In this document: positions 1-22,036 of the stretch, one piece after another
Layout of the letters: every line of letters starts with the position of its first letter
Numbering within the stretch: the first letter of the stretch is position 1
Assembly: GCA_045589595.1 (NCBI GenBank)
Contig: JAZNPK010000043.1
Span: 82,623 to 114,622 of the forward strand
Source: Victivallales bacterium
GTDB lineage: Bacteria; Verrucomicrobiota; Lentisphaeria; Victivallales; UBA1829
Direction: 5' to 3'
Length of the DNA: 32,000 nucleotides
The notes under the pieces: model-generated
Databases searched by the model: none
The model's input: only the letters and a program-made list of their open reading frames with translations
Told to the model about the DNA's origin: nothing
Program-made: the position numbers and the translations under genes

Positions 1-1506
1 ACGCAGGGGAAACGGGTGATCGACGGATCCGGTCTTTTTGCTGTTCCCGGCTTCATCGACAGCCATGTCCATCTGGAATCCAGTCATCTTCTGCCTTGCG
101 AGTACGAGCGTCTGGTGGTTCCCCACGGCGTGACTGCGGCGGTTTGCGATCCCCATGAACTTGCCAATGTTGTCGGGGAAAAAGCTTTTGAATTTTTCCA
201 TGCCGCCGCCGGAAAACTTACCATGAGTCTGATCGTGAACCTGAGTTCCTGTGTTCCTGCGACCGGTTTTGAGACTTCCGGCGCAGAGATCGATTCCCGC
301 ACGCTCCGGAAATGGAAAGAAATGTATCCGGAAAGTTCTCCGGGTGAACTGATGAATGTGCCCGGTCTGCTCAACGGTGATGCAGAAGTCCTTGCAAAAG
401 CAGCACTTTTTGATGCCATCGACGGACACTGTCCGCAAGTTTCCGGAAAAGAACTCAATGCTCTCGCTGCTGCCGGTGTCGTGAATTGCCATGAAAGTAC
501 ACATTATGCGGAAGCGGTCGAAAAAATGCGCCGTGGGATGCAGGTGTTTATCCGGGAAGGTTCCGCCGCAAAAAATCTGGATGCCCTGCTGCCCCTGATC
601 ACCGTGGAAAATTCGCCGTTCCTCTCCTTCTGTACGGATGATCTTTCACCGCTGGAGATCGTTTCCGCCGGGCATATCGATTCCATGATCCGCCGCGCCA
701 TTGCGGCCGGAGTGACACCCCTCGCAGCTTACCGGGCGGCTTCGTGGTCCGGGGCAATGCACGCAGGTCTTACGGACCGGGGACTGCTGGCACCCGGTCG
801 CCGCGCCGACATCGTGTTGTTGTCCGATCTGGAAAAATGTACGGTCCGGGATGTTATTGTCAACGGGATCCCCTGTGGGGAATTGCCGGATCCTGCAGTG
901 GAAGTCCCGGCAGAATTTTACCGCAGTGTCAAATGCCGTTTTATTTCAGCGGAAGACCTTGCGCACGCAGTCGCGCGCGATGAAACGCCTGTCATCGGCG
1001 TCGTATCCGGTTCACTGATCACGGAGAAACTGATCAACGGAAAAATATCCGGCGATGTTCTGAAAGCGGCAGTTGTGGAGCGTCACGGAAAAAACGGCAA
1101 TATCGGTCTGGGATTTGTTCATGGTTTCGGGATAAAATCGGGCGCACTGGCAACAACCGTGGCACACGATTCACACAACATTTGTGCGATCGGGACATCC
1201 GATGAGGATATTGCCGCGGCGGTCAATGCTCTGATCCGGTATCAGGGCGGACTGGTCGTTGTGCAGAACGGGCAGGTGACGGCTGCTCTGCCGCTGCCGG
1301 TGGCGGGGCTGTTTACGGACCGCCCCTATCCGGAATTCAATGCTGGTTTTCAGAAAGTTATGGATGCCGCCCGACGGACGGGCTGTACGCTGCAGGAACC
1401 CTTCCACCAGCTTTCATTTCTGGCGCTGCCGGTGATCCCCCATCTGAAACTGACTGACAGAGGGCTGTTCGATGCGGATCTCTTCCGGCATATTCCGTTG
1501 AATTGA
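1..1506 (+). CDS. ade: Adenine deaminase, 5'-truncated by the window edge
   Basis: The frame is open from nt 1, so the GTG at 16 is internal. It has the amidohydrolase metal-binding motif GFIDSHVHLESS and the adenine-deaminase-typical block VAHDSHNICAIGTSDED...YQGGLVVV. Stop at 1504-1506. Confidence 0.85.
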   Translation, partial: TQGKRVIDGSGLFAVPGFIDSHVHLESSHLLPCEYERLVVPHGVTAAVCDPHELANVVGEKAFEFFHAAAGKLTMSLIVNLSSCVPATGFETSGAEIDSRTLRKWKEMYPESSPGELMNVPGLLNGDAEVLAKAALFDAIDGHCPQVSGKELNALAAAGVVNCHESTHYAEAVEKMRRGMQVFIREGSAAKNLDALLPLITVENSPFLSFCTDDLSPLEIVSAGHIDSMIRRAIAAGVTPLAAYRAASWSGAMHAGLTDRGLLAPGRRADIVLLSDLEKCTVRDVIVNGIPCGELPDPAVEVPAEFYRSVKCRFISAEDLAHAVARDETPVIGVVSGSLITEKLINGKISGDVLKAAVVERHGKNGNIGLGFVHGFGIKSGALATTVAHDSHNICAIGTSDEDIAAAVNALIRYQGGLVVVQNGQVTAALPLPVAGLFTDRPYPEFNAGFQKVMDAARRTGCTLQEPFHQLSFLALPVIPHLKLTDRGLFDADLFRHIPLN

Positions 1507-1524
1507 GAAGCAGAGGTGGATGCC

Positions 1525-1797
1525 ATGAATTACTTTACGGATATTACCTTCGTGTGTTTGTGTGATCCCGCCGTTCCGGAAGCGTTCCGGGTCAATGAAC
1601 TGATCCCGGTCTCCTGTCTGCGTTTTGCCACACCGTTACAGAATGGAGCCGGTCCGGAAAGCCTCGGTGTTCCTGTGACGGAAGATTTTGATACGGCAGT
1701 GGCGGATTGTGATGCCATTCTGCAGGAGATCATGTCGATGCCGGATGCGGCGGAGCGGTCGTCAGTCAGCGGCGGAACAGAAGCATTTTTCAACTGA
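1525..1797 (+). CDS. Small hypothetical protein (90 aa)
   Basis: ATG at 1525 lies 8 nt after GAGG (1513-1516), and the ORF fits between ade and the next gene. No recognisable motif. An equally long antisense ORF exists, so coding status is uncertain. Confidence 0.35.
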   Translation: MNYFTDITFVCLCDPAVPEAFRVNELIPVSCLRFATPLQNGAGPESLGVPVTEDFDTAVADCDAILQEIMSMPDAAERSSVSGGTEAFFN

Positions 1798-1823
1798 TAA
1801 GATAAGTAACAGAAAGGTCAAGA

Positions 1824-2912
1824 ATGAAAAAGATCAGAGTCGGGATCATCGGGCAGGGGCGCAGCGGCAGAGGTATTCACCGTCATCTTTTCACAACCGT
1901 CCCGGAACTTCAGGAACGCTTTGAAGTGGTTGCGATCGCGGACCGCATCAGAGAACGCTGGGAACCTGCGGATGCCGTACCCGATAATGGCGTGCGGAAA
2001 ACGGAAAACTACAAGGATCTGCTCAACGATCCGGATATCGACCTGATCGTCAATGCTACCATGAGCAAAGATCATGTCGATGTCAGCATTGAAGCGCTTG
2101 AAGCCGGTAAAGATGTGATTTGCGAGAAGCCGCTCTGCCGCACGGTCGCCGATGTGGAACGGATCGAAGAAGCCATTGCACGGACCGGCAGATTTTTTGC
2201 GGTGTTCCAGCAGTCCCGGTTCCGTCCGCTTTTCCGTAAATCGCTGGAGATCATGCAGTCCGGTATTCTCGGCAGGATCGTTATGATCAAAGTTGCCTAC
2301 AACACTTTCGGGCGCCGCTGGGACTGGCAGACGATCCAGGATATGTGCGCCGGAGAATTGCTCAATACCGGTCCGCATCCGATGGATCAGGTCGTTCAGT
2401 TTTACGGCGGAGATTACCCGCAGAACATCGTTTGTGTGATGGAGCGGACGAATACGAGCGGCGATGCCGAGGACCATATCAAGATCCTGATGCATGGCAA
2501 AGATCAGCCCACGGTGGATGTGGAAATTTCACGCTGCTGCATGTTCCCCGGGAATACTTACGAGATCTACGGAACAAACGGAGGTCTCAAAGCCTCCGGA
2601 AATACTGTCACGTGGAAATATTTTCTGCCGGAAGACGAGCCGGAGCGGCCGCTGGTGAAAGGTCCCCTTGAAGGGGCGGGGCGGATGCCTGTTTACTGCG
2701 GGGAGAAGATCCGGTATTATGAAAATACATGGAACAGCCCCCCGGAAGTCGGCGGTATGGATTACTGGGGACGCTGCTATTATCTGCAGGTTTACGATGC
2801 ACTGACCGCCGGCAAACCGATGGATGTCACTCTGGATCAGGTCAAACGCCAGATCCGTATGATCGAAGAGTGTCACCGTCAGAATCCCCTGCCGAAATTT
2901 GTGGAACTGTAA
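1824..2912 (+). CDS. Gfo/Idh/MocA family NAD(P)-dependent oxidoreductase
   Basis: N-terminal Rossmann motif MKKIRVGIIGQGRSG and the family motif ICEKP (EKP). Length (362 aa) and C-terminal alpha/beta domain are typical of the family. Confidence 0.85.
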   Translation: MKKIRVGIIGQGRSGRGIHRHLFTTVPELQERFEVVAIADRIRERWEPADAVPDNGVRKTENYKDLLNDPDIDLIVNATMSKDHVDVSIEALEAGKDVICEKPLCRTVADVERIEEAIARTGRFFAVFQQSRFRPLFRKSLEIMQSGILGRIVMIKVAYNTFGRRWDWQTIQDMCAGELLNTGPHPMDQVVQFYGGDYPQNIVCVMERTNTSGDAEDHIKILMHGKDQPTVDVEISRCCMFPGNTYEIYGTNGGLKASGNTVTWKYFLPEDEPERPLVKGPLEGAGRMPVYCGEKIRYYENTWNSPPEVGGMDYWGRCYYLQVYDALTAGKPMDVTLDQVKRQIRMIEECHRQNPLPKFVEL

Positions 2913-2940
2913 GTTTATACAGCAGTCCGATACAAAAAAT

Positions 2941-2977
2941 CAGCCGCCCCGGAAAGATGTGCCGGAGCGGCTTTTTG
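2941..2977. terminator. Bidirectional rho-independent terminator between convergent genes
   Basis: GC-rich hairpin AGCCGCCCCGG / CCGGAGCGGCT (2942-2952 and 2962-2972) followed by TTTTT and preceded by an A-run. It lies between the stops at 2912 (+) and 2997 (-). Confidence 0.6.
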
Positions 2978-2996
2978 CTTTCTGATCGATTCAGTT

Positions 2997-4292
2997 TCAG
3001 CCGAATGTCAGCAGGAGGATCGTCCCGTCTTTGATCCGTTCCGGCAGGTTGACCGGACAGAAATCGTGTGTCTGGTCCACGATCCGGCAGGAGGTGATCT
3101 TTTTCTCCGTCCGGAACACCAATTCCTGTTCTGTTCCGGTCAGGTTGACGATGACAGCTGCAGCTTCTGAATTCTTAACATCTTTTGCTGCAAGGACATA
3201 CAACTTTTCAGTATCGGTTTCGGCATTGACCTGCGTGCCGAGTTTGAACAGTTCATTGAACGCCACGAACGGCCAATAACTTTTCAGCGGCTCAAATGTC
3301 ATGGGGTTGAAAAGGGATCCGTAAAAACTGGTTCCGCACCGTGCATCATAGAACATGGCTTTCGCAAGTTCGGAGTTCTGCATCGTGATCAGCGTGGCTG
3401 CCGTTTCTGCTGCGTGTCCGGCTGATCCTTTGGGATTTCCGCGGGGATTCCATTCGTTCAAATGCTGTTCCACATCGCTCAGACCGTAATATTTCAGCCG
3501 TTCCGCAGCGTAATGTGCAAAGAATCCCACCGTTTCCGCGGTGCCGTAACAATGCCAGGAAAAGAAATCCAGCGGTGCGTTCTTTTCCGAAACAGCCTTG
3601 AGAAACGCATCGGCACATTCCAAGCGCCACTGATTGTTCTCATCAACGGCATCTTTCGGCATCATAGCGGCATAGAATCCGCAGCTGGCAGGACCGCCGA
3701 TCCTGATTTCCGGGAATTCGCGTTTCAGATATTCCGCCGTGGTGATATACAGGTCGATATACTGTTCGTATGTACCGGTCCACATTGCATTTTTTGTGGG
3801 ATCTTTTGCAAGATCTGCTTCATTCCAGATCTCCCAGTAACGGATCTTGTATTCAAATCCGTTCGCCCAGCCTTTTGTGTAATGGCGGATGATGCCCGCA
3901 CAGATTTTTGCCCATTTCTGAAAATCGGCAGGGGGATGGATGTGGTACGCTTTGCGGAAATATTCATTTTCGATGGTCACGCCCAGACGGTAATACGGTT
4001 CCACATCGGCTTCCATCAGCCCTGTGATCACGGGATCGGTGAAAGTGAAATCATAGGATGCGGGATCTTCCGGATCTGCATTGAAATCGGGAAAAACGTT
4101 CGGAATATCCACAAATCTGCCGCCGCCGAATGCGCCGCCGGTATCGTGCAGACGGGAGTAGGGGATGCCCGCTTCCGTGAGATAATGAAAAAGTTGCGTC
4201 CCGCTCCAGCCGAGGATCGGCGGTTGTCCAACGCCATGAACTTCTTTCATCGGACCGGAAGCCTGTGTGAAATCGATGTTTACTGTTGCCAT
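2997..4292 (-). CDS. Cytoplasmic clan GH-A glycoside hydrolase, GH39-like
   Basis: RYWEIWNEADL (acid/base NE motif) and HLNEWN (nucleophile-type motif) in a roughly 430-aa protein with no signal peptide. The family assignment is from memory of GH39 xylosidase motifs. Confidence 0.75.
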   Translation of the reverse strand: MATVNIDFTQASGPMKEVHGVGQPPILGWSGTQLFHYLTEAGIPYSRLHDTGGAFGGGRFVDIPNVFPDFNADPEDPASYDFTFTDPVITGLMEADVEPYYRLGVTIENEYFRKAYHIHPPADFQKWAKICAGIIRHYTKGWANGFEYKIRYWEIWNEADLAKDPTKNAMWTGTYEQYIDLYITTAEYLKREFPEIRIGGPASCGFYAAMMPKDAVDENNQWRLECADAFLKAVSEKNAPLDFFSWHCYGTAETVGFFAHYAAERLKYYGLSDVEQHLNEWNPRGNPKGSAGHAAETAATLITMQNSELAKAMFYDARCGTSFYGSLFNPMTFEPLKSYWPFVAFNELFKLGTQVNAETDTEKLYVLAAKDVKNSEAAAVIVNLTGTEQELVFRTEKKITSCRIVDQTHDFCPVNLPERIKDGTILLLTFG

Positions 4293-4436
4293 AATCCGTT
4301 TTTTCCTTTACCGTTTTTCAGCTGTTTTTTTATCGGTTATCCATACCATATCACCGGAAAAATAAAATACAAGCAGACCGGAGTATATATGGACAGAAGA
4401 CGCATAATATTATATGTAAAAATGTTACGCAGAGTC

Positions 4437-4464
4437 TTGAAAAGCCACTGAAAAATGCTAGAGT
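4437..4464 (+). promoter_or_regulatory. Candidate sigma70-type promoter for the four-gene cassette
   Basis: TTGAAA (4437-4442), a 16-nt spacer and TAGAGT (4459-4464), preceded by TGC (an extended -10-like TGn). This would give a leader of about 160 nt. Sequence-only guess. Confidence 0.25.
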
Positions 4465-4624
4465 ATGCCGTTGTCATTTTTTTGTCCGCAAACCGGAGTT
4501 GAGTCCGGTGGTACAGACAGAAATTGACAGGACCGGTCGTGTCTGAAAAAAAACGGCTGGTGGCAGAAGTTTTGCAATTCAGAAGTACAGTAGTTTAATG
4601 TCATAACAGCAACAATGAGGATGG

Positions 4625-6769
4625 TTGATTATGAGTCGGTTGGTAATATCGTTTGTGAAAGAATGGTTGAACGAAAAGCGCAGCAATGGAATACGTGTGA
4701 TCCGTCAACTTGAAAAATGGATCGCTTCTCTGGATAATGTTACATTCAAGGGCGGCTCCGCCCGTGAACTGATCGTGGAATTGCCGACCGAAGAACGGGA
4801 AAAATTTCTGAAAGATCTGGCAGAACGGATGACCGTTGATTTCGGTGAGACCGATCCCTGGGCACATACGATCTTTTCTGGCGATATTGACGGATTGGAT
4901 GTGCCGACCGGAGAAACAGAAGAATCCGGATCCGGCGAAACAGAAGAAATTGAAGATGATCCTGTTCCGCCGTCCGAAGATGAATCCGGAAAAGATGAGA
5001 CTCCGGAGGATGACGGTCCGCAGAAATCCCACACCGGAAAACGCGAAGGCTTGCCAAAGAAACTTGAACAGATCTTCAGTAAAGTCCCGATCAGACATTG
5101 TCCCGTATTGGAAGCCTATGCTCGCGAGACGGTTGAGGTGATACCGATGCTGCAGAAGATGGGGACTGCGTCCGCGTTGTGGCATCAGCATCTGCTGTTG
5201 GCTGTTGATCCCGGTTATGGGTGTTCTGAATTTTTTAATGATCTGGTTCAGATCTACAGAACGTACGGACTTGTGAAGGGAGGGGCTGCGAAACGATACG
5301 TGCAGGAGTACGCTCTGCTGCCACGGGGCAAAATGCAGGACAATGATAATGATTACTGTGTCACCTGGGCGAATCTGCTCAAAAAAGTGCAGGAAACAGC
5401 GCATGAAAATAAGTACGAAGGTGTTTCCACAGTATTGATCTGTATCGATATATCAGAATGGCAATCTCTGCTGGCAACATCCGAATGCAAAGATTATCTG
5501 CGCCAGCTGAATTCGCTGTGCGGTACTTTTCTTATCGTGTTCCGGATCCCGTTTGTTGTGGGGAATATGCTGAACGCCACGGCTGATGCGCTGAACGACA
5601 TCCTGAATGTGCGCACACTTGCCGTCCCGCCGGTATCTCTCAATGATATGGTCGATTATACATGCGAGGAATTGAAAAAGAATGGGTTGAGTCTTGACGA
5701 CAACGCACGCAATTCTCTGGAACAGACTCTGCTGCTTGAAAAAAGAGACGACAGCTTTTTCGGTTACAAGACAGCAGATAAGATCGTGCGGAAGATGATC
5801 TATAACAAGGCCCTTGCAAATTGCCGCAGCAAAGAGGATAACCGGGTCATCACCACCGGTGAATTTGAGCCGATCCCCGGTACAGGTGCCGATGACGACC
5901 CCATTGCCGAACTGAAGAAAATGATCGGGATGAGCGAAGTGGAACGGCGTCTCAACGAAGTGATCATACAGGTCAAGACCCAGAGAAAACTTGCCGCCCA
6001 GGGAAAAAATGTGGCAAGACCCGCCATACACATGATCTTTACCGGGAACCCCGGTACCGGAAAAACAACGGTGGCACGCATTCTTGCCCGCATGATGCAG
6101 CAGGAAGGCATTTTGCGCAAAGGGCATTTTGTGGAAGTCAAGGGACGCGATCTCTGTGGACAGTACGTGGGCGAAACTGCCCCGAAAACAAGTGCGATCT
6201 GCCGGGATGCGTACGGCTCTGTACTCTTTATCGATGAGGCATATACTCTGTTCAATCGTGATTTGGGCAGCAGGGATTTCGGACGCGAAGCGTTGGATAC
6301 CCTTGTGGCGGAAATGGAAAATCATCGCGAAGATCTTTGTGTCGTCATGGCAGGTTACAAGGATGAAATGGAAGTAATGCTCAAAGCCAATGCCGGTCTC
6401 AAAGACCGCATCCCCTTCGAGATCGAATTCCCCAACTACACAAAGGATGAACTTGAACAGATATTCTTTGTGATGCTTGACGGCGTTTTCGAGTATGAAA
6501 ATGACCTGCAGGAGGCAGTACATAAATTTTTTGCGGAAATACCGCAGGAAACATTTACTTCCAAAGGTTTCAGCAATGCGCGCCTTGTACGTAATCTGTT
6601 CGAACGTACATGGTGCAAAGCTGCATGCCGTCAGAATATGGAAGGCGGAGAATTGCGTATCCTCAAAAGCGATTTGATCGGGGCCGCCGCAGACAGCGAA
6701 TTCAAGAAACTTTTAGCGCAGAAAGCTGTAAAACGGACAGCAATCGGGTTTAATGCTTTACAGAAATAA
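4625..6769 (+). CDS. Tandem AAA+ protein: unknown N-domain and acidic linker, degenerate AAA+ module, then an intact CbbX/SpoVK/EccA-type AAA+ ATPase module
   Basis: Walker A GNPGTGKT (6044-6067) and Walker B VLFIDEAY (from 6224). The CbbX-type continuation FGREALDTLVAEMENHREDLCVVMAGYKDEM...NAGLKDRIPFEIEFPNYTKDEL is present. The more likely start is the ATG at 4631, 10 nt after GAGGA. An upstream module has DPGYGCSE in the Walker-A position and VLICIDISEW in the Walker-B position. Confidence 0.9.
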   Translation: MIMSRLVISFVKEWLNEKRSNGIRVIRQLEKWIASLDNVTFKGGSARELIVELPTEEREKFLKDLAERMTVDFGETDPWAHTIFSGDIDGLDVPTGETEESGSGETEEIEDDPVPPSEDESGKDETPEDDGPQKSHTGKREGLPKKLEQIFSKVPIRHCPVLEAYARETVEVIPMLQKMGTASALWHQHLLLAVDPGYGCSEFFNDLVQIYRTYGLVKGGAAKRYVQEYALLPRGKMQDNDNDYCVTWANLLKKVQETAHENKYEGVSTVLICIDISEWQSLLATSECKDYLRQLNSLCGTFLIVFRIPFVVGNMLNATADALNDILNVRTLAVPPVSLNDMVDYTCEELKKNGLSLDDNARNSLEQTLLLEKRDDSFFGYKTADKIVRKMIYNKALANCRSKEDNRVITTGEFEPIPGTGADDDPIAELKKMIGMSEVERRLNEVIIQVKTQRKLAAQGKNVARPAIHMIFTGNPGTGKTTVARILARMMQQEGILRKGHFVEVKGRDLCGQYVGETAPKTSAICRDAYGSVLFIDEAYTLFNRDLGSRDFGREALDTLVAEMENHREDLCVVMAGYKDEMEVMLKANAGLKDRIPFEIEFPNYTKDELEQIFFVMLDGVFEYENDLQEAVHKFFAEIPQETFTSKGFSNARLVRNLFERTWCKAACRQNMEGGELRILKSDLIGAAADSEFKKLLAQKAVKRTAIGFNALQK

Positions 6770-6772
6770 TCA

Positions 6773-7303
6773 ATGAACGAAAGGAAAAAAAGTATGGAAC
6801 GGGAACAAATTGTATCTGTGGTGCGTGATTGGCTTGATGCAAATGACTGGAATTATGAATACGATGCAGAATACCACTACATCACAAGCGGTATCACCTG
6901 CGGCGGGAAATTTCAAGCAGTCAGACTGCTTGTTGCTTTCTCAGAATATTCTTACTCGGTATACACGATTGCGCCGCTCGCCTGCGAACAGGAATATATG
7001 GACGAACTCAACCGGTATATGTCGCATCTGAACTTTACGCTCCAGAACGGTTACTTCAGCATTGATATGAGGGATGGCGAGATCCGCTATAAGATCTTCG
7101 TAAATTGTGATGATCTGGAACAGCTCCCGGATGTGATCATCAGAGACAGCATTCTCCTCGGTGCTTTGATGATGAATAAATACGAAACCGCTATCGCCGG
7201 AGTGGCTTTGGGTTTTTCAGATGCAAAAACTGAAATCAAGAAGCTGGAAGGGGATGACGATGATATGGAAGATACGGATGACGATGCCGGGGCAGAGGAA
7301 TAA
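6773..7303 (+). CDS. YbjN-like (T3SS-chaperone-fold) protein with a poly-acidic C-terminal tail
   Basis: The pattern VVRDWLDANDWNYEYD...FQAVRLLVAF..YSVYTIAPL....MDELNRYMSHLNFTLQNGYFSIDMRDGEIRYKIF matches my memory of the YbjN family layout. The tail is EGDDDDMEDTDDDAGAEE. An alternative start at ATG 6794 has the better RBS (AAGGA, 8 nt upstream). Confidence 0.65.
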   Translation: MNERKKSMEREQIVSVVRDWLDANDWNYEYDAEYHYITSGITCGGKFQAVRLLVAFSEYSYSVYTIAPLACEQEYMDELNRYMSHLNFTLQNGYFSIDMRDGEIRYKIFVNCDDLEQLPDVIIRDSILLGALMMNKYETAIAGVALGFSDAKTEIKKLEGDDDDMEDTDDDAGAEE

Positions 7304-7308
7304 AAAAT

Positions 7309-7332
7309 AAAATACAACCGCCCCTGTATTTT
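7309..7332 (+). terminator. Weak AT-rich hairpin (possible attenuator) between cassette genes 2 and 3
   Basis: 8-bp stem AAAATACA / TGTATTTT with an 8-nt loop ACCGCCCC. The stem runs straight into T residues. The all-AT stem makes it weak. Confidence 0.25.
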
Positions 7333-7376
7333 CTTTGAAGTTCACGTTGTGGAAAACACTGAAATGGAGTATGATA

Positions 7377-9272
7377 ATGAAAAAATTTTTTGACAGATAT
7401 TTGTTTTCGCGGATGGGACTTCAAATCGCTTTTTCTGTTTTGGCGATCCTGGCGTTTTCTGTATTGTTGACCTGCATCAAAAACGGCGCTACTGCTGCCG
7501 GAAATGATGCATCATACAGTCAGTTGTCGTGGGGATTCTGTCAACTGGCGGATGGCGGGTCCGTGACGACAACTCTGAAGGAACTTGATCAGATCCGCAT
7601 CGATGGCGGGAATGTGCCGGTTATACTTGTGATCGCATTGCTGTCATGGATCATCGGTATGATCCTGTGCGGTTTTGTCACCGGCGCGATCGTCAATGCC
7701 TTTGATGGCAGAAGAGACAAGATCAAATCCGGGCAGACACGCTACAAATTCAAAGATCACGGTCTGATCCTCGGCTGGGGGGGACAGGGAGTCGCTGTCG
7801 TTCAGAGTATGCTGCAGCCGCAGAAGATGATCAATGAGGTCCTCATCGTTTCGGAAACGCCTGCCGGAGAAATCACTGCCACGCTGAAGAAGATCCTGAA
7901 CGCATCTCAGTTGAGAAATATTTATATCTACAACTGCTCCGTCGATGTCATGGATAATATCAGGAAACTTCAGGCAGAACTCGCCCGGACCATTGTCATT
8001 CTCGGCGAACAGAATCATGCGGATAAAGACGGGGAAGCATTGCATACGGAACAGCTTCTCCAGAAATATGTACGGGAAAAAATCACGGTAGATACAAAAG
8101 AACAATTTACAAATCTCCCGATCAAACTTTATCTTCACCTTGAGGATCCCGCGCTTTATCTGCATGCACGCTCGGAGGAAAACGGTTTTGTGGAAGACGA
8201 TATCATCGACATCGAACTGTGCAATTTCTACGAAAGCTGGGCGTGGTATTGCTGGTCCAAAGCCAATTCCGCCGATAATTCCGGTGCGCCTTATCTGCCC
8301 CTGCGGCACAAGCGCGGTTCAACCCGTGTGGAATTGTTTGTGATCGGCTCCGATCCCATGGCTCAGGCTCTGGTCAATTACGCGATCCCTCTCCTGAATT
8401 ACGGCGAAAACAGCAAACACAGGATCACACTCTTTGATGCCGATGGTGATGGTGAGGACTGGCTGCCGAAACGGCAGGTGGCTGATTCCCTGCCGGAGGT
8501 CGAGATCGTCAGCAAACGATGCAGCGGCGGCTCCAATGAAGCCGGCGATATCATATATGAGGCTGCTGTGCGTGAAGATACTTCCGTAACGGTCGTGATC
8601 GCTGTCCCCGGCGCAGATGCTGCGGTAAAAGCCTATGCTGCGTTGTCGCATCAGGTCCGCCGCAAGGATATCTCTGTGCTGATCCGGCAGTCAACCGAAT
8701 GTGCCAACTGTATCGGAAAAGGATTGCTCCAGACGTGCGGAGATCATGCAGAACTCCGTTATTTCGGCATGACGGATATCCTGCCGTGGATGGATTCGTC
8801 CCGTGGGGAATACGGCAGAGATATCAATTACAGTTACGAAACCGTTGCGGCTGTTGTTGCAAAAAGCGATTTGAAACAAATTGAACCACCGGAAAAGTTT
8901 TTGGAGATCCTGAACATTGCGTTGCAGTGTCCGTACGGAAAAGAACAGCAGGATGAAGCCGAAAAACAGTGGCAGGGGATCCTGCGCTGGAAACGCTGGT
9001 CAAGCATCAGCACCGGTGACAGTTTCAAGGAAAAGGCATTTGCATTCCCCGATTGTACATCCAATGCGGAAAACTGCGTTGTTTTTCTGCGGGCGGAGCA
9101 TAACCGCTGGTGGGCTGAACGCCTGTTGGCGGGCTGGTGTTTTGCTGAAAAAAGAGACAATAAAGAATTTTTGCATCCGATGCTGACTGAGTTTGAAAAA
9201 CTGAGCGCAGAAACACAGTGTTATGATCTGCTCGGCATTGTCGCAATGAAAAATGCGGGATTATTGAAATAA
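7377..9272 (+). CDS. Membrane protein: 2-TM pore (CASTOR/POLLUX-like), two Rossmann/RCK-like domains and a C-terminal RyR domain
   Basis: TM1 is GLQIAFSVLAILAFSVLLTCI. A pore-loop-like segment YSQLSWGFCQLADGGSVTT carries ADGG at 7548-7559. TM2 is VPVILVIALLSWIIGMILCGFVTGAIVNAF. Rossmann motifs are GLILGWGGQGVAVV and VELFVIGSDPMAQAL. The C-terminal AEHNRWWAERLLAGWCFAEKRDNKEFLHPMLTEFEKLSAETQCYD is RyR-domain-like. ATG 7377 lies 7 nt after GGAG, and the track ORF begins at TTG 7335. Confidence 0.85.
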   Translation: MKKFFDRYLFSRMGLQIAFSVLAILAFSVLLTCIKNGATAAGNDASYSQLSWGFCQLADGGSVTTTLKELDQIRIDGGNVPVILVIALLSWIIGMILCGFVTGAIVNAFDGRRDKIKSGQTRYKFKDHGLILGWGGQGVAVVQSMLQPQKMINEVLIVSETPAGEITATLKKILNASQLRNIYIYNCSVDVMDNIRKLQAELARTIVILGEQNHADKDGEALHTEQLLQKYVREKITVDTKEQFTNLPIKLYLHLEDPALYLHARSEENGFVEDDIIDIELCNFYESWAWYCWSKANSADNSGAPYLPLRHKRGSTRVELFVIGSDPMAQALVNYAIPLLNYGENSKHRITLFDADGDGEDWLPKRQVADSLPEVEIVSKRCSGGSNEAGDIIYEAAVREDTSVTVVIAVPGADAAVKAYAALSHQVRRKDISVLIRQSTECANCIGKGLLQTCGDHAELRYFGMTDILPWMDSSRGEYGRDINYSYETVAAVVAKSDLKQIEPPEKFLEILNIALQCPYGKEQQDEAEKQWQGILRWKRWSSISTGDSFKEKAFAFPDCTSNAENCVVFLRAEHNRWWAERLLAGWCFAEKRDNKEFLHPMLTEFEKLSAETQCYDLLGIVAMKNAGLLK

Positions 9273-9308
9273 ACAGGAAATGATTAAAAACGAAGGAGAT
9301 ATTCCTGT

Positions 9309-11885
9309 ATGAGTGAAAAATATCAGATTTTTTTGAGTTATTCGCACAAAGATGCGAAAGATTACGGTATCGATTACATCACGGAGATCAAACGGCAGAT
9401 CGAGGAATCCATCGGCGAAAATGTATTTCTGGATGTGGATGCACTGAGGCTGGGCAACGCGTGGAACGCTAAAATACAGGGGCATCTGGACAGAAGCAAA
9501 GTTTTTATCTGTCTGCTCTCTGAAAATTATATCAAGTCTGAATACTGCACCCGTGAACGCTTGTGGTGGGCGCAGAAGGAAATGGCGAAAGGCAGATTTC
9601 AGAAAGCAACACTGCCCGTCTTTTATATTCAGATCAAAACAGAGGATGAAACGATCCTGCAACGCTGGGAGGAAATGCAGATCCTTCAGAATGATGTGCG
9701 CCCCTGGTTCCCCGAAGGTGCCGGTCAGGTTGCTGCAAAATTGGTCAGTGAGCGTCTGAAAACTGCCAAACTTCTCGCCCGGATCGACCAGATCAGCAAG
9801 GATGAAGACACATGTTCAAAAATCATTTGTTCCGTTCCGCCTTACAATCTGAATTTTGTGGGACGCATCAAAGATTTGAGTAATGTCCGGCAGATTTGTC
9901 AGCACAGCGGGATGGCTGCCGGCTCCATTCCGGTGATCCACGGCGAACCGGGCTGTGGAAAAAGTGAGATCGCCTTTGCTTACGCACACGGTTATGCTTC
10001 TGAATATCCCGGCGGGCTTTTTTTTGTTCCGATGGAGCATGTGACAGAATGGAGTATGGCGTGGCAGAAACTCTCAAATGAATATGATAATAAACGCTGT
10101 ATGGCGATTTATGAACTTCTGGGCTTGAAGAAGGACGACCGGAAACTGCCGCCGGAAGAATTTGCGAAGACGTTCGCCCGGCAGATGTGGATCCATGTTT
10201 CCGACAGCGGCCGTACATTGATCCTCCTGGATAATCTTGACTGTATGGAGCTCATTTCGGAGGGCGGTCTGAAAAGACTGTTTCCCAATGGCAGTATCCC
10301 GGAAAATCTGGATCTGATCGCCACTACCCGGAATACGCCCCATCCGCTCCAGAACAGTAAGGCGGTTCCCGTCCCCATCGGTGATCTCGGGGAAGAAGCC
10401 GCACTGGAACTTTTGCGTTTGCATTGTGAAGGATCGGATTTCAATCAGGCGCCGCCGATGGATGGTGATGAGACAGCTGCCGCAAAAGAACTGCTGAGGT
10501 TTCTGCAATATCACGCATGGTCTGTGGAGATCATCGCCGGGTATCTGGGGCAGGAATACCGTTACGGGGCAACACCCCGGACGATTTTGGAACAGCTGAA
10601 AGATAATTTTGAGATCAACACAAGATACAAAACGCTCCGGGAGATCCCCGACAGCATTGATGCCCTGCTGAATCCGACCATTGAACAGATCCGGAAACAG
10701 GAATTAGGCGGGGAGATCCTCGAATTGGCAAGCGCAGCTGCCATGTTTTCGCCGGATGCCGTGGGACTCGATCTGCTCAGAAAGTTCTGGATAAAGCGTT
10801 ATGGCGGTGTGACTTGCAGTAAAACGGACTCCTGGCTTTTTGCATGGGAGACCCTGAAAGATCATCACCTGCTTTCTGTGGAAAATAACGGCATTTCCCG
10901 TATGCACCGTCTGACACAAAATTACTTTTTGAAATTCGGTCAGAAAAAACAGAAGGGGTTTGCAGATGATATCAGAATCACCATAGAACAGACCCCAAAA
11001 TCCGATTTTAAAAAAGAGGATGCCGTGGCTGTTGCCGGCTTGGCAAAATTCATCCTTGCGCAATCGTGGAACGGGGAATTTTTACATTCCATTCCCAACT
11101 GGGTGGAAGATATTTTGCTGGAATGGTATTGCATTGATGACGCAAAAATCCTGCTGGATGAACTGGAAAAAATCGCCAATGACCATAAGGACGATGCTGA
11201 TCTGGCATATTCATTGATCAGTATCCGTGGAAAATTTTATGAACGATCCGGCAACTTTGCGCAGGCATTGGAGAAGTATCAGAACGCGCTGAAAACGGCT
11301 CAAAATGCCAAAGATGATCAGATGATCGCTGGTTCTTATCTTTGCATCGGAAATGTGTATTCTGATCTTGGCGACTTTGAAAAAGCGCTTGAGTTTTATA
11401 CCAAAAGTTTGGAAATCAAAAAACAAACCCTTCCGGAAAATCACCCCGATATCGCAGTCTCCTACAATAACATTGGAAATGTGTATTATAATCTTGGCGA
11501 GCATAAAAAAACGCTTGAGTTTTATACTAAAAGTCTTGAAATCCGGCAACAAACCCTTCCGGAAAATCATCCCGATATCGCAGTCTCCTACAATAACATC
11601 GGGTGTGTGTATTCTGATCTTGGCGAGCATAAAAAATCGCTTGAGTTTTATACCAAAAGTCTTGAAATCCGGCAACAAACCCCTCCGGAAAATCACCCCG
11701 ATATCGCAGACTCCTACTATAACATTGGGTTAGTGTACAAAAGGCTGAAAGACTATGAAAATGCATTGTTGTCCTTTACAAAGGCAAAAGAGATTTATGC
11801 AATCTGCTATGGCGTGGAACATCCGGAAACCGTTGACTGCAATAAACGCATAGAGGACATCAAAGGCGAAATTGCAGCCGGCTAA
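9309..11885 (+). CDS. TIR-NB-ARC-TPR STAND NTPase (bacterial TIR-NLR-like)
   Basis: TIR region: IFLSYSHKD...VFICLLSENYIKSEYCTRERLWW, with the conserved Glu (E83) at 9555-9557. P-loop GEPGCGKS at 9942-9965, Walker B LILLDNLD, and the NB-ARC-like LIATTRN. The C-terminus has at least five TPR units of kinesin-light-chain type (ALEFYTKSLEI..QTLPENHPDIAVSYNNIGNVY). RBS GGAG sits upstream of the ATG. Confidence 0.92.
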   Translation: MSEKYQIFLSYSHKDAKDYGIDYITEIKRQIEESIGENVFLDVDALRLGNAWNAKIQGHLDRSKVFICLLSENYIKSEYCTRERLWWAQKEMAKGRFQKATLPVFYIQIKTEDETILQRWEEMQILQNDVRPWFPEGAGQVAAKLVSERLKTAKLLARIDQISKDEDTCSKIICSVPPYNLNFVGRIKDLSNVRQICQHSGMAAGSIPVIHGEPGCGKSEIAFAYAHGYASEYPGGLFFVPMEHVTEWSMAWQKLSNEYDNKRCMAIYELLGLKKDDRKLPPEEFAKTFARQMWIHVSDSGRTLILLDNLDCMELISEGGLKRLFPNGSIPENLDLIATTRNTPHPLQNSKAVPVPIGDLGEEAALELLRLHCEGSDFNQAPPMDGDETAAAKELLRFLQYHAWSVEIIAGYLGQEYRYGATPRTILEQLKDNFEINTRYKTLREIPDSIDALLNPTIEQIRKQELGGEILELASAAAMFSPDAVGLDLLRKFWIKRYGGVTCSKTDSWLFAWETLKDHHLLSVENNGISRMHRLTQNYFLKFGQKKQKGFADDIRITIEQTPKSDFKKEDAVAVAGLAKFILAQSWNGEFLHSIPNWVEDILLEWYCIDDAKILLDELEKIANDHKDDADLAYSLISIRGKFYERSGNFAQALEKYQNALKTAQNAKDDQMIAGSYLCIGNVYSDLGDFEKALEFYTKSLEIKKQTLPENHPDIAVSYNNIGNVYYNLGEHKKTLEFYTKSLEIRQQTLPENHPDIAVSYNNIGCVYSDLGEHKKSLEFYTKSLEIRQQTPPENHPDIADSYYNIGLVYKRLKDYENALLSFTKAKEIYAICYGVEHPETVDCNKRIEDIKGEIAAG
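11385..11762 (+). repeat. Three tandem 126-bp (42-codon) near-identical units encoding TPR pairs
   Basis: Units start at 11385, 11511 and 11637, each beginning (g/a/t)CGCTTGAGTTTTATAC(C/T)AAAAGT. Long identical runs such as CCGGAAAATCA(C/T)CCCGATATCGCAG recur in each unit. A more diverged unit precedes them from about 11259. Confidence 0.85.
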
Positions 11886-12038: not shown

Positions 12039-12668
12039 TCACAGCCGTTCTCTGCAGAGATCGCCACAGCCGGATTTGCGGCAGGACTCTTTGCACAGAG
12101 CCACGATCAGCGCATGGTATTCTCTGTAAATGGTCACATCGGCAGTCAGCGCATCCATAAAGATTTTCTGCAGGGAATCATACGGCAGACTGCCGTCCAG
12201 CTCCAGATGCCGTTCTGCCACACGCCGGGTGTAGGCGTCGATCACAAATACCGGTTTGTCAAAAGCATAAAGCAGAATGCTGTCCGCCGTTTCCCGCCCG
12301 ACACCTTTGACAGCGAGCAGTTGTTTCCGCAACGCCCGTACATCACCGGACGCCGCAACAGCGTCCCCGTGATCCATGATAAATTGCGCCATCGCTTTGA
12401 GATAAGCACATTTCTGCGTGAAAAATCCAGCCGGACGGATCAATTCCTGCAATGCCGCATCCGGCATTTTCAGAACTTTCTGCGGTGACATGACATCTGC
12501 CGCAAGCAGACCGTTGATGGCTTTTTCCACATTGGTCCACGCCGTGTTCTGCGTCAGGATCGCCCCGGTGATGATCTCCCACTGTTCGCCGGATTGACAG
12601 GGCCACCAATTCTGCGGACCGAAGTGTGCAAGCAGAATATCAAAAAGGTGACGGATCGGCGTTGTCAT
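12039..12668 (-). CDS. Endonuclease III-related HhH-GPD protein (COG2231-like)
   Basis: GAILTQNTAW, the HhH LLAVKGVGRETADSILLYAF, VIDAYTRRV (Asp) and a C-terminal four-Cys cluster CKESCRKSGCGDLC. The start is taken at ATG 12668-12666, which overlaps the upstream stop as ATGA. The track's longer ORF to 12752 runs into the upstream gene. Confidence 0.8.
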   Translation of the reverse strand: MTTPIRHLFDILLAHFGPQNWWPCQSGEQWEIITGAILTQNTAWTNVEKAINGLLAADVMSPQKVLKMPDAALQELIRPAGFFTQKCAYLKAMAQFIMDHGDAVAASGDVRALRKQLLAVKGVGRETADSILLYAFDKPVFVIDAYTRRVAERHLELDGSLPYDSLQKIFMDALTADVTIYREYHALIVALCKESCRKSGCGDLCRERL

Positions 12669-14071
12669 AACTCGTTGCTGTTGAATATACTTATGCCATT
12701 CTCGCTGTGAACCGGGCGTTTCAGCGCGCATAGATGGTCCATGGCAGCGCAATATTCTGCGATGGAGGAAAATACCGGTTGGTAATCCCCAACGATTTTT
12801 TTCGCACGCGCTCCGCCTTTTTCCAGAAGCACACAGACGATCGCCGCCTGAACAACAGCAGGATCAAACACAGCATATTCGGGATATTTTATTTCGCAGT
12901 CCGCCCCGTGGCAGCCGCCGCCCATACCCGAAGAAAACGGCTGGATCACCGGCATCACCGCGCCCACATTTCCCATATCCGAGCCGCCGCGGTTCTGTAT
13001 CGTTCTGCTCCGGTCGAAGCAGACATTTTCCTTTCCGAAGAGGTCGCACCCGACTTCGTATGCAATGTTTTGAAAGTCCGGGCAGTCGCAATCCTTTTCG
13101 GGGATATACATTTCCAGATCTTCGATTTCGACATCTGCGCCAACGGCAAGGGCTCCCGCCGCGTATGCTCTGTTGATCTTTTCATTGATATCTTTCAGCA
13201 CATGGTAATCGTTGGCGCGGACATTGGATTCCACAACTGCTTTGCCGGGAATGAATTGCGGCGTTGTGCCCGCTCCGGTGATCACGGCGGAGTGCCGGAC
13301 AAGGCAGTCTTCAGGGAACACTTCCCGGAGAGAATTGATGGCGTTCAGGGCGATCTGTGCCGCAGAAAGCGCATTCACGCCGCCGGTCGGATAAGCACCG
13401 CTGTGACATTTGCTGCCGTAATAAGTGACCCGCTTGGCAATGATCCCGTTTGTGCCGGGCGCGATACGGAGTTTATGATTTCTGCCCGCATCCGTGTGGA
13501 TCATCAGCGCAAGATCCACACCGTCAAAAAAGCCCCGGCGCATAAATTCGCTTTTGCCGGAAATACTTTGGAGCGTGCCTTCCGCTTTCATTGCGGATCT
13601 GTCGGAAAGTTCGATCAGTTCCTCGGCGGGGACTGCCATAATGCGTATTCTGCCGCAAAGTTCCGGCAGGATCCCCGGCTCTTTCAACACCGCCGCAACG
13701 CCGAGCAGTGCTGCCGACTGACAATTATGACCGCAGGCGTGAACTGCCCCCGTCTCCGGATCGCTCTCCGGGTGTTCGGGCAGGATGATGCTGTCCATTT
13801 CAGCAAGTACCGCAACCGTGGGACCTTCTTTACCCGTATCGATATCGAAGAAAAATCCGGGGATATTCCCAGCGTCCACAGGCTTGAAACCCAGCGCCGT
13901 ATATTTCTCCCGGAGATAATCGTGGGCGATCCATTCTTTGAATCCCGTCTGGGGGTGGGACCAGATAAATTTTTCCGCGTCGTACATCATCCCGCGGTAT
14001 TTTTCCATTTCCCGCGAGACGATCTCCGGCCATTTGCTGTTTTTTTCTTCCATTGCGGTCTTTACTTCCAT
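12665..14071 (-). CDS. M20-family amidohydrolase/peptidase (AbgB or hippurate-hydrolase-like)
   Basis: The metal-ligand context GAVHACGHN, AEMDSI and VPAEE match M20D-type amidohydrolases. 468 aa. Confidence 0.8.
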   Translation of the reverse strand: MEVKTAMEEKNSKWPEIVSREMEKYRGMMYDAEKFIWSHPQTGFKEWIAHDYLREKYTALGFKPVDAGNIPGFFFDIDTGKEGPTVAVLAEMDSIILPEHPESDPETGAVHACGHNCQSAALLGVAAVLKEPGILPELCGRIRIMAVPAEELIELSDRSAMKAEGTLQSISGKSEFMRRGFFDGVDLALMIHTDAGRNHKLRIAPGTNGIIAKRVTYYGSKCHSGAYPTGGVNALSAAQIALNAINSLREVFPEDCLVRHSAVITGAGTTPQFIPGKAVVESNVRANDYHVLKDINEKINRAYAAGALAVGADVEIEDLEMYIPEKDCDCPDFQNIAYEVGCDLFGKENVCFDRSRTIQNRGGSDMGNVGAVMPVIQPFSSGMGGGCHGADCEIKYPEYAVFDPAVVQAAIVCVLLEKGGARAKKIVGDYQPVFSSIAEYCAAMDHLCALKRPVHSENGISIFNSNEL

Positions 14072-21852: not shown

Positions 21853-21949
21853 ATCTCATCTCCTGCGTTGGACGTTTTTTATACAGTAAAGCTCCGTGCG
21901 CGGAATGTCAAGCCACTGAAAAATTATTTTATTTTCCGGCATGCTGTTC

Positions 21950-21978
21950 TTGACTCCGGCGCGTTTATGTATTATAAT
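21950..21978 (+). promoter_or_regulatory. Near-consensus sigma70-type promoter for the large surface-protein gene
   Basis: TTGACT (21950-21955), a 17-nt spacer and TATAAT (21973-21978), 58 nt upstream of ATG 22037. Confidence 0.5.
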
Positions 21979-22036
21979 TATATTGCGGGATATGGTTTTG
22001 AACAGAGATGAAATAACTTTTTACGGGGGTAAAAAA

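Follow-up and report, generated by a model that had tools for sequence, protein, structure and literature searches.

Cyclic ADP-ribose (cADPR) isomers made by TIR-domain proteins are immune signals in bacteria and plants. Operons that combine a TIR gene with an ion-channel gene are known as type X Thoeris and have anti-phage activity (Yirmiya et al., bioRxiv, December 2025 preprint, 10.64898/2025.12.03.692087). In that work, an ion channel as a Thoeris effector was validated once, in Bacillus sp. BH32, and TIRs fused to Avs or STAND proteins were excluded from the survey as NAD+-depleting effectors. In the portion of the survey's text and tables available to us, the RyR domain (PF02026) is unmentioned. 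Here we analyzed a 32,000-nucleotide stretch of a Victivallales bacterium genome (GenBank assembly GCA_045589595.1, contig JAZNPK010000043.1, positions 82,623 to 114,622 of the forward strand), called the window below. At positions 7377-11885, it carries a gene for a cation channel with a C-terminal RyR domain and, next to it, a gene for a TIR-STAND-TPR protein. Our reading, which we hold with about even confidence, is that the two genes form a Thoeris-like unit in which a signal from an NLR-like TIR protein gates the RyR-domain cation channel.

RyR domains have been described in phage proteins that counteract Thoeris by binding 2'/3'-cADPR. The phage PF02026 protein RyDEP cleaves 2'/3'-cADPR, and its relatives sponge it; the contacts are H75, W78, H100 and D117, and the pocket holds linear ADP-ribose (ADPR) after cleavage (PMC13232231). 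The protein RyR Tad binds 3'cADPR with a dissociation constant (KD) of 43 nM via H129/W132, H154 and D171 (10.64898/2026.06.04.730250). Phage RyR domains prefer cyclic isomers and bind them with nanomolar affinity (PMC13232231; 10.64898/2026.06.04.730250), and Repeat12 of RyR1 binds ATP and ADP (10.64898/2026.06.04.730250). A bacterial RyR-domain effector has, as far as we found, not been described; the RyDEP and RyR Tad preprints report viral antagonists only.

The scheme that we propose is as follows. The TPR array of the TIR-STAND-TPR protein would recognise an invader protein, after which the STAND NTPase would oligomerise and bring the TIR domains together. The TIRs would then convert NAD+ to an ADP-ribose-derived nucleotide (a cADPR isomer or ADPR), which would bind the C-terminal RyR Repeat12 of the neighbouring channel. 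As a result, the tandem-RCK gating ring would open the tetrameric two-transmembrane pore, probably a non-selective cation pore, the membrane would depolarise, and the infected cell would arrest or die. We infer each of these biochemical steps, and the defence phenotype, from comparative genomics and structure prediction. A more specific claim, that the RCK channel uses Repeat12 as the receptor for a cADPR-type nucleotide and that the TIR-STAND-TPR protein is a generator of the messenger and not a terminal NADase, is made more tentatively; we place it somewhat below an even chance.

The RyR-domain channel and its TIR neighbours

The features that the argument needs first have the following positions in the window:

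7377-9272 (+): P-loop cation channel of 631 residues, with a two-transmembrane pore, tandem RCK domains and a C-terminal RyR Repeat12
9096-9227 (+): predicted nucleotide-binding core of the RyR domain, with E574-H575-N-R-W578-W579 at 9096-9113, H600 at 9174-9176 and D617 at 9225-9227
9309-11885 (+): TIR-STAND-TPR protein of 858 residues, with TIR at residues 1 to about 140 and TPR_12/TPR_10 from about residue 607
11345-11725 (+): 126-bp unit repeated three times in tandem (89% matches), with a pair of TPRs encoded per unit; the most variable part between strains

Two hydrophobic segments of the channel, TM1 at residues ~13-37 and TM2 at ~78-110, lie on either side of a pore helix and filter (WGFCQLADGGS). 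They are followed by RCK1 (residues ~125-300), RCK2 (~315-470) and a helical RyR Repeat12 (~505-631). The AlphaFold2 model of the protein has a predicted local distance difference test score (pLDDT) of 88 and a predicted template modelling score (pTM) of 0.81, and its best Foldseek matches are GsuK (ADP and NAD crystals), the rings of CASTOR/DMI1, Slo1 and MthK (E 8e-7 to 1e-4). Together with the PDB and Pfam matches to RyR given below, this bears out the initial annotation, made from the letters of the window, which had described a two-transmembrane pore protein with a RyR domain. Its Rossmann call is right as to the tandem RCK fold; the glycine motif of RCK1 (GWGGQG), however, is not conserved, and the family consensus is GWDFQG. 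The K+ filter TVGYG is not present in the channel, which has QLADGGS there; the family consensus is Q-x-x-D-G-G or S-S-P-x-G. Since the filter is LADGGS (7545-7562) and not TVGYG, the channel is probably a non-selective cation pore.

We searched a profile of the channel against genome and metagenome collections and looked up the contigs with channel or AAA+ homologues; these contigs are referred to by L numbers (L001, L049, etc.). The channel family has 86 close members and has so far been found mainly in rumen and gut Lentisphaeria/Kiritimatiellia. Its distant members, proteins of 600-666 residues with TrkA_N and RyR, come from soil and freshwater metagenomes; TrkA_N is significant in them, and some paralogues have Ion_trans or Ion_trans_2. 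A viral origin of the channel gene, or of the YbjN-like gene described below, was considered and rejected because no relatives of either were found in IMG/VR.

The RyR domain of the channel matches Repeat12 of RyR1, RyR2 and RyR3 in the PDB, with a best whole-sequence E of 1e-10 and about 2e-3 for each repeat. It also matches bacterial RyR-domain structures; 3nrt and 35tm are among the PDB matches, and distant members of the family score 38-64 bits with the Pfam RyR model. The core residues E574-H575-N-R-W578-W579, H600 and D617 are invariant or nearly so in the family. Each of H575, W578, H600 and D617 is kept by at least 90% of the 37 family members compared, and they align with the corresponding residues of Repeat12 in RyR1/2/3. 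Their spacing (+3/+25/+42) equals that of H75/W78/H100/D117 in RyDEP and of H129/W132/H154/D171 in RyR Tad. In PDB entry 35tm, a 139-residue "RyR domain-containing protein" of two chains, residues 73-123 match channel residues 572-622 without gaps, and the four residues fall at positions 76, 79, 101 and 118, one off the published RyDEP numbering. The entry is probably RyDEP; the residue correspondence is drawn from the ungapped coordinate ranges and from the alignment to RyR Repeat12.

The N-terminus of the second protein matches TIR_2 in Pfam (E 1e-12). Its candidate catalytic residue, E83 (9555-9557), aligns with the catalytic glutamate of AbTIR and L6, in agreement with the initial annotation. 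An alternative glutamate, E91 (9579-9581), fits W-x3-E when the protein is aligned to the SARM1-like TIRs beside other channels. The STAND part has Walker A GCGKS (9951-9965) and Walker B LLDNLD (10224-10241), both invariant in 40 homologues of the STAND core. Among these 40, an N-terminal TIR is found in 30, AAA_16 in 20, NB-ARC in nine (best 7.5e-12), DUF7779 in seven and NACHT in six. In the window protein, NB-ARC (PF00931) gives no match at E ≤ 0.01, and the STAND core gives none against PDB sequences. Judging from the homologue counts, "TIR-STAND-TPR of an NB-ARC-like kind" is a fair description. The TIR, the STAND core and the many TPRs of the earlier label TIR-NB-ARC-TPR are thus kept, and its NB-ARC part is carried by the homologues.

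The TPR-repeat region is 68-69% identical in amino acids to that of a sister strain (L049). In otherwise near-identical contigs, the TIR-STAND product has 837, 859 and at least 919 residues, so the length of the sensor array changes as repeats are gained and lost. PADLOC reported no system in the window: ThsB1 was marginal (E 0.009), there was no effector model and no Avs or bNACHT profile. The best PADLOC matches of the TIR-STAND protein were a generic TPR model and, on the TIR, PDC-S66. NCBIfam gave no system-level assignment for the locus. The locus had been said to match no named system, and this is so for PADLOC and NCBIfam, but operons of a TIR and an ion channel do have a name, type X Thoeris.

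The adjacency of a channel gene and a TIR gene recurs. TIR genes lie within 5 kb of an RCK-RyR channel gene at 13 independent loci, at 12 of them on the same strand, and the TIR-linked channels range from 87% down to 25% identity to the window channel. The architecture of the partner varies (TIR-STAND-TPR, TIR-TIR-Sel1, a 176-residue TIR, and TIR proteins of about 400-1150 residues). The loci are:

Window and L049: TIR-STAND-TPR, 33-36 nt downstream of the channel
L013: TIR-TIR-Sel1, abutting the channel
L019: TIR 99 nt upstream of the channel
L022: one TIR 294 nt downstream and a second 1.7 kb upstream of the channel
L030: TIR protein of 1148 residues, 13 nt downstream of the channel
L033: TIR 75 nt downstream of the channel
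L034: TIR adjacent to the channel, divergent
L002: channel, 329-residue protein, kinase/ADP-ribosylglycohydrolase and TIR, in this order
L004, L024, L025 and L026: TIR within 5 kb of the channel
L072: 176-residue TIR, then a 1060-residue Sel1 protein, within 5 kb of the channel

The shortest gaps between channel and TIR genes are only 13-99 nt, and such spacings argue for operons. At the same loci, 12 TIRs were counted in the 270 kb at most 5 kb away from a channel and two in the 214 kb elsewhere, which is about a fivefold difference in density (Poisson P ~1e-5). Thus, when the synteny of two, three or four genes was checked, the channel-TIR arrangement recurred and the four-gene order, considered below, did not. 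The earlier suggestion that a TIR product gates the channel is genuinely supported by TIR genes that recur beside divergent channels and by a RyR domain that has the residues of cADPR-isomer binding. Fusions of a protein kinase with an ADP-ribosylglycohydrolase, which lie beside channels in L002, L016, L017 and L028, also point to ADPR chemistry.

Several other neighbours of the channels were observed. A protein of about 330 residues with no Pfam match, followed by the 800-residue kinase and ADP-ribosylglycohydrolase fusion, lies downstream of channels (L002 3167-6564, L016 5839-9260, L017 6850-10265 and L028 1068-2621; in the short contig L029, 1392-2390, without the fusion). Possibly, channel, ~330-residue protein and kinase fusion, in L002 with the TIR gene that follows, make up an extended version of the system with more genes. 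The channel is present as two or three tandem paralogues in L016 (1-4292), L017 (1102-5324), L020 (6263-14143) and L070 (6079-9902); some of them have a six-transmembrane Ion_trans-type N-terminus (798 residues), and heteromeric channels are conceivable. An AI-2E-transporter-like gene follows the paralogues in L016, L017 and L020, and in L072 a fused Ion_trans/AI-2E gene lies just upstream of the single channel. A protein of about 1120 residues with DUF4011, superfamily-1 helicase and MTES_1575 restriction-endonuclease-like parts is encoded upstream of channels in two unrelated contigs (L020 2841-6206 and L072 1013-4384), which suggests a defence-island setting or a further component. Stand-alone RyR proteins of about 160 residues are encoded on environmental contigs not known to be viral (L036 3-488, L044 571-1065, L046 679-1173 and L047 416-898), in L044 immediately upstream of a 666-residue RCK-RyR protein. 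These could be encoded by the host and buffer or regulate the ligand that the channels use. TPR or Sel1 giants neighbour channels in L070, L007, L050 and L023. The one in L070 (9908-13054), a TPR protein of 1048 residues 5 nt downstream of the channel, opens with two motif copies ('IFVASS..L..ER' and 'FIAADD') that recall DUF4062/TIR-like domains. Neither Pfam nor our own TIR models detected a TIR in it, and it may be a cryptic TIR-like generator.

Strain variation and the AAA+/YbjN-like pair

Upstream of the channel gene, the window carries two more genes in the same direction:

4437-4464 (+): promoter-like TTGAAA-16-TAGAGT (9/12 match), intergenic, within the stretch shared with L049
4504-7376 (+): module subject to an indel relative to L049, with a leader of its own ahead of the AAA+ and YbjN-like genes; in L049, its place is taken by 68 unrelated bases
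4631-6769 (+): AAA+ ATPase of 712 residues, with a C-terminal CbbX/SpoVK/EccA-like AAA+ module at residues 426-671
6773-7303 (+): YbjN/type III secretion chaperone-like acidic protein of 176 residues, the conserved 3' partner of the AAA+ gene

As the initial annotation stated, four open reading frames (ORFs) lie on the same strand; on one side of them is a GH39-like gene (2997-4292, -), on the other an HhH-GPD glycosylase gene (12039-12752, -). With starts at 6773, 7377 and 9309, the intervals of 3, 73 and 36 nt stated in that annotation are right. We likewise found no strong internal terminator, the sole internal hairpin being a weak one after gene 2 (7305-7337, -4.9 kcal/mol, z -2.5). A Shine-Dalgarno element at each gene, also claimed, could be confirmed for the AAA+ gene, which starts at ATG 4631 (alternatively TTG 4625) with GAGGA upstream, but not for gene 2, which has none that is clear before 6773. 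Homologues of the latter begin at the residue equivalent to ATG 6794, which is probably its true start. The placing of the cassette start at 4437 was mistaken: this is the promoter-like hexamer, in another frame than the AAA+ ORF. The promoter-like region directly precedes the channel gene in L049; neither promoter-like nor terminator-like matches exceed their frequency in shuffled sequence. The G+C content, 53-56% in the flanks, drops to 43-51% in the cassette. Genes of phages or mobile elements were not found in the window, which otherwise holds genes of sugar and amino-acid metabolism. Among these are ordinary enzymes (WbsX glycosyltransferase, GDSL lipase, amidohydrolases), and a 1385-residue ORF at 21941-26098, with fn3 and bacterial Ig-like domains near its C-terminus, is probably a surface protein.

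We compared the window with the sister strain. In L049, the flanking adenine deaminase, GFO and GH39 genes are 98.4% identical to window positions 1-4500. Homology runs to about position 4503 and resumes exactly at the start codon of the channel, and the channel and TIR-STAND genes are intact. No flanking repeats are visible in the alignment at the indel junctions. The synonymous divergence (dS) between the two strains and the ratio of nonsynonymous to synonymous divergence (dN/dS) are:

Flanking genes: dS 0.03-0.05, dN/dS 0-0.17
TIR-STAND, codons 1-600: dS 0.038, dN/dS 0.90
Channel, whole gene: dS 0.31, dN/dS 0.23, mosaic
Channel, first 120 codons: dS 0.95, dN/dS 0.16

The dS of the TIR-STAND gene equals that of the flanks, and the TPR region past codon 600 is only 68% identical. 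Nucleotide identity of the channel gene climbs from 65% at 7300-7600 to 99% at 8200-8500 and falls again near 8650-8950 and 9100-9400, whereas the flanks are 98-99% identical. On the simplest reading, recombination exchanged a tract between about 4504 and about 8100 (against L049, 7475-8270), by which the AAA+ and YbjN-like genes arrived along with the first third of the channel gene from a divergent allele. The comparison shows that the locus is a recombination hotspot with a fast-evolving sensor. The dN/dS of 0.90, the divergence of the TPRs and the presence or absence of the module look like signatures of conflict between the two strains.

The C-terminal module of the AAA+ protein has Walker A GTGKT (6053-6067) and Walker B FIDEA (6227-6241). 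Its NCBIfam scores are 249 bits for TIGR02881 (SpoVK), 214 for TIGR02880 (CbbX) and 207 for TIGR03922 (EccA), all below the equivalog cut-offs of 423, 459 and 467 bits, respectively. Thus, the protein shares a clade with CbbX, SpoVK and EccA and equals none of the three. It has the same type of C-terminal module as these but its own N-terminal region of 430 residues, where EccA has a TPR domain. This family-specific region gave no match in Pfam or in a PDB profile search. When the two halves were compared by hhalign, the match was weak (E 0.029, probability 1.7%), yet in Walker A register, with DPGYGCS (5207-5227) opposite the Walker A of the C-terminal module; the N-terminal region may be a degenerate AAA domain. 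Of the "tandem AAA+" of the initial annotation, one intact CbbX/SpoVK/EccA-type module is clear and a second one is possible.

For the product of gene 2, a YbjN-like chaperone fold had been proposed correctly. Its AlphaFold2 model (pLDDT 86.5) has the alpha-beta-beta-beta-alpha-beta-beta-alpha fold of YbjN-family structures and matches AmyR, YbjN, DR_1245, ExsC and SicP in Foldseek (E 2.5e-4 to 2e-3, TM score 0.5-0.67). PF10722 matches a homologue (P0214) and not the window protein. The fold is that of YbjN and class I type III secretion chaperones (AmyR, ExsC, SicP, CesT); unlike in the settings of EccA and type III chaperones, no secretion-system genes lie near the window pair.

The AAA+ family has more than 100 full-length relatives with 45-64% identity in Lentisphaeria and Kiritimatiellia, and the YbjN-like gene follows the AAA+ gene in every context examined. 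Five other contexts of the pair are:

L061: adjoins a 1015-residue TPR protein
L063: within an operon encoding very large proteins
L065: next to MutL and FtsZ
L067: amid three TIR genes
L068: next to fucosidase and lipase

Neither the channel nor the TIR-STAND gene is present in any of these five contexts. In L067 (1699-14981), an AAA+ protein 46% identical to that of the window stands in a same-strand cluster with TIRs of 405 and 478 residues, a 554-residue TIR-Sel1 protein and a PrsW-protease/RDD membrane protein; this is the sole other hint of a link of the pair to TIR biology. The 1015-residue TPR_12/TPR_10 protein of L061 (4447-7494, -) is a divergent neighbour of the pair; its TPRs resemble the window array (phmmer E 1e-94), and no domain was detected in its N-terminal 500 residues. 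We know of no described system built on the AAA+/YbjN pairing. YbjN, CbbX, EccA, RyR and ion channels are unmentioned in the Aravind-laboratory surveys of NAD/ADPR-dependent and NTP-dependent conflict systems. The pair is, judging by gene order, a separately inherited two-gene module and a separable add-on. It may be a chaperone or remodeller acting on TPR or TIR proteins; we found no described counterpart, and the evidence that ties it to the channel and the TIR-STAND protein is thin. As a widespread uncharacterised two-gene module, it is worth separate study.

Weighing the alternatives

Several points weigh against the proposed two-gene signalling unit. The Pfam RyR score of the window channel (27.4 bits) is borderline, equal to the cut-off of 27.4. 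The conserved H/W/H/D residues could equally serve to bind ATP, ADP or ADPR, or to hydrolyse a nucleotide as in RyDEP. The window TIR belongs to an AbTIR/L6-like subfamily, whereas most channel-linked TIRs are SARM1-like ('FISYRR'), with phmmer E values of only 1e-5 to 1e-7 between the two groups, and it may simply deplete NAD+, which is the usual reading for Avs/STAND-fused TIRs. The adjacency to a TIR-STAND gene itself is confined to the window and L049; L009 has a related STAND with no detected TIR, and no TIR was found in the available flanks of L001, L007, L009, L020, L027 and L050. The background used for TIR density is small and comes from the same biased loci, and Lentisphaeria/Kiritimatiellia may be TIR-rich. 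Finally, the recombination tract ends inside the channel gene, so the donor already had the AAA+, YbjN-like and channel genes adjacent, which argues for some link between the pair and the channel.

It is possible, though in our judgment unlikely, that the genes met in a defence island by coincidence. The TIR-STAND protein would then be a self-contained, Avs-like abortive-infection protein that burns NAD+, the AAA+/YbjN pair a third unit in one hotspot, and the channel either a defence gene in its own right or a cation channel under physiological regulation by nucleotides. In favor of this, the locus is a recombination hotspot with an indel and mosaic divergence. Single-gene TIR-STANDs are an accepted defence class, and Yirmiya et al. 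set Avs-type TIRs aside as NAD+-depleting. Other defence-like genes also lie near several channels (the DUF4011 helicase-endonuclease in L020 and L072, RecC-like, PDDEXK), and several channel loci lack a TIR. Coincidence, however, leaves unexplained the 13 independent TIR neighbours, 12 of them co-directional, beside channels of 25-87% identity, as well as the conserved pocket of cADPR-binding type on the channel and the kinase-ADP-ribosylglycohydrolase neighbours.

A circuit that senses metabolic state appears quite unlikely. Here, the TIR would lower NAD+ and raise linear ADPR, and the RCK ring, the RyR domain or both would read the change with no dedicated messenger. The top structural matches of the channel are GsuK crystals with NAD and ADP, the RyDEP pocket holds linear ADPR after cleavage, RyR1 Repeat12 binds ATP and ADP, and STAND-fused TIRs are usually seen as NADases. 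All of this fits such a circuit. What speaks for a dedicated signal instead is that the RCK1 Rossmann glycine motif is not conserved in the family (GWDFQG), that partner TIRs elsewhere include small ThsB-sized proteins typical of signal generators, and that phage RyR domains prefer cyclic isomers at nanomolar affinity.

The initial annotation had taken the four genes for one system, with the AAA+/YbjN pair as an obligatory remodeller, resetter or second sensor, and had named conserved synteny outside close relatives as the check. It turned out that the four-gene order occurs in 12 contigs, all with an identical AAA+ protein, which makes them one lineage; outside it, the channel-profile search and the look-ups of contigs with channel or AAA+ homologues gave no such arrangement. 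As originally put, the claim therefore does not stand. An orthologous pair is absent from all of about 30 other channel loci, in L049 the channel and TIR-STAND genes are intact without it, and elsewhere the pair occurs without these two genes, also in housekeeping and metabolic contexts (MutL/FtsZ in L065, fucosidase/lipase in L068). Taken together, this means that the four genes are not one conserved system. In favor of the four-gene model are the co-directional, tightly spaced genes with no strong terminator, an order kept in 12 contigs, the 46%-identical pair amid three TIR genes in L067 and the pair that adjoins window-like TPRs (E 1e-94) in L061. The model now seems quite improbable, and such credence as we leave it is due mainly to the AAA+-YbjN-channel arrangement of the donor. 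In this lineage, recombination seems to have placed the pair ahead of the channel gene, probably under a shared promoter region; the two-gene unit would not need it.

An AAA gene near a 59%-identical channel in L052 and L007 looked like a recurrence of the pair and was rejected. It is a member of another family, of tandem-AAA type, and is 25% identical over one module; the 160-residue protein encoded downstream of it does not resemble the YbjN-like protein and begins with a signal-peptide-like segment. L052 also encodes a 157-residue protein with no Pfam match (3252-3725, -), between Sel1-repeat genes and the tandem-AAA gene, upstream of the channel.

Least probable by far is a circuit outside immunity, made up of a STAND switch and a ligand-gated channel, that answers an endogenous cue (ion homeostasis, dormancy or a contact-dependent response). 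The metabolic flanks and the lack of phage or mobile genes in the 32 kb, of IMG/VR relatives and of a PADLOC system match fit it. Against it stand strain-level presence and absence, mosaicism, a sensor dN/dS of ~0.9 and varying TPR repeat numbers; moreover, conflict systems are typically marked by a TIR-STAND-TPR architecture and by operons of a TIR and an effector.

Comparison with described systems

The channel shares its plan, a two-transmembrane pore and two RCK domains per subunit, with GsuK, MthK, Slo1/BK and CASTOR/DMI1. GsuK is gated by NAD+/ADP and Ca2+. The window channel differs from this group in its LADGGS filter, an extra RyR domain, an RCK1 whose GxGxxG is not conserved in the family, about 10% identity, and a gene context that is of immune and not of transport type. 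With RyDEP and RyR Tad, the channel shares the PF02026 Repeat12 fold and the H-x2-W...H...D spacing. These are small, soluble, dimeric viral immune blockers, in contrast to the RyR domain of the channel, which is a C-terminal appendage of a predicted host immune receptor. If the proposed reading is true, such a host RyR channel would supply the receptor side, where the phage preprints gave viral antagonists only.

In eukaryotes, two parallels can be drawn. Plant TIR-NLRs signal to helper-NLR Ca2+ channels, and the window TIR-STAND protein would likewise act upstream of a cation channel via a small molecule. As in the animal RyR/cADPR axis and in TRPM2, which is gated by ADPR, the window has a cation channel, here bearing Repeat12 and tied genetically to enzymes of the TIR family, which make cADPR-type molecules. 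Its pore and gating ring, however, are of the RCK/Slo type and not of the six-transmembrane RyR/IP3R type, and there is one Repeat12 per channel subunit instead of tandem repeats in a 5000-residue protein. To our knowledge, cADPR has been tied to Ca2+ release by animal ryanodine receptors for decades with no agreed binding site, and direct binding of cADPR to RyR Repeat12 is unproven. If true, our reading would give a prokaryotic form both of the cADPR-opened RyR-domain channel of animals and of plant signalling from TIR-NLR to cation channel, and it would identify Repeat12 as the long-sought nucleotide-sensing element. It would also offer a small, tractable tetrameric channel in which to test whether nucleotide binding by Repeat12 is coupled to gating, and it could be relevant to the action of cADPR on ryanodine receptors.

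With Avs/AVAST and bNACHT, the TIR-STAND-TPR protein has in common the effector-NTPase-repeat architecture (TIR, Walker A/B NTPase, TPR). It matches neither an Avs1-5 nor another named STAND profile, and its NTPase resembles NB-ARC/AAA_16 only at the family level. In the bacterial TIR-STANDs known to us, the TIR is taken as a terminal NADase effector and there is no partner gene. If the two-gene unit works as proposed, it would show that a TIR fused to a STAND/NLR protein is able to pass its signal on to an effector apart from itself; present surveys assume the contrary and discard proteins of this kind. A new effector family would thereby be added to the catalogue of TIR immunity.

The locus is most like type X Thoeris. 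There (ThsB TIR and ThsK channel), as in the membrane types II, V and VII, the TIR adjoins a membrane effector as it does in the window. The predicted logic is also common to both: an ADPR derivative made by the TIR activates a cell-arresting effector that bears a nucleotide-binding domain. ThsB, however, is small and stand-alone, whereas the window TIR is the N-terminus of an 858-residue STAND-TPR protein. The locus has a TIR with the catalytic glutamate (E83) and has neither a ThsA/ThsB profile assignment nor a stand-alone ThsB. Identity with type X Thoeris was rejected, the TIRs of Table S1 of the survey having no detectable similarity to any ORF in our loci; sequences were compared for the TIRs, and the type X effector was compared by its description ("ion channel"). 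Thus, TIR signalling to a membrane effector is of an already known kind, and two elements are new here: the channel, of the RCK type, has a RyR Repeat12 that likely acts as its sensor, and the signal likely comes from a TIR of the NLR type.

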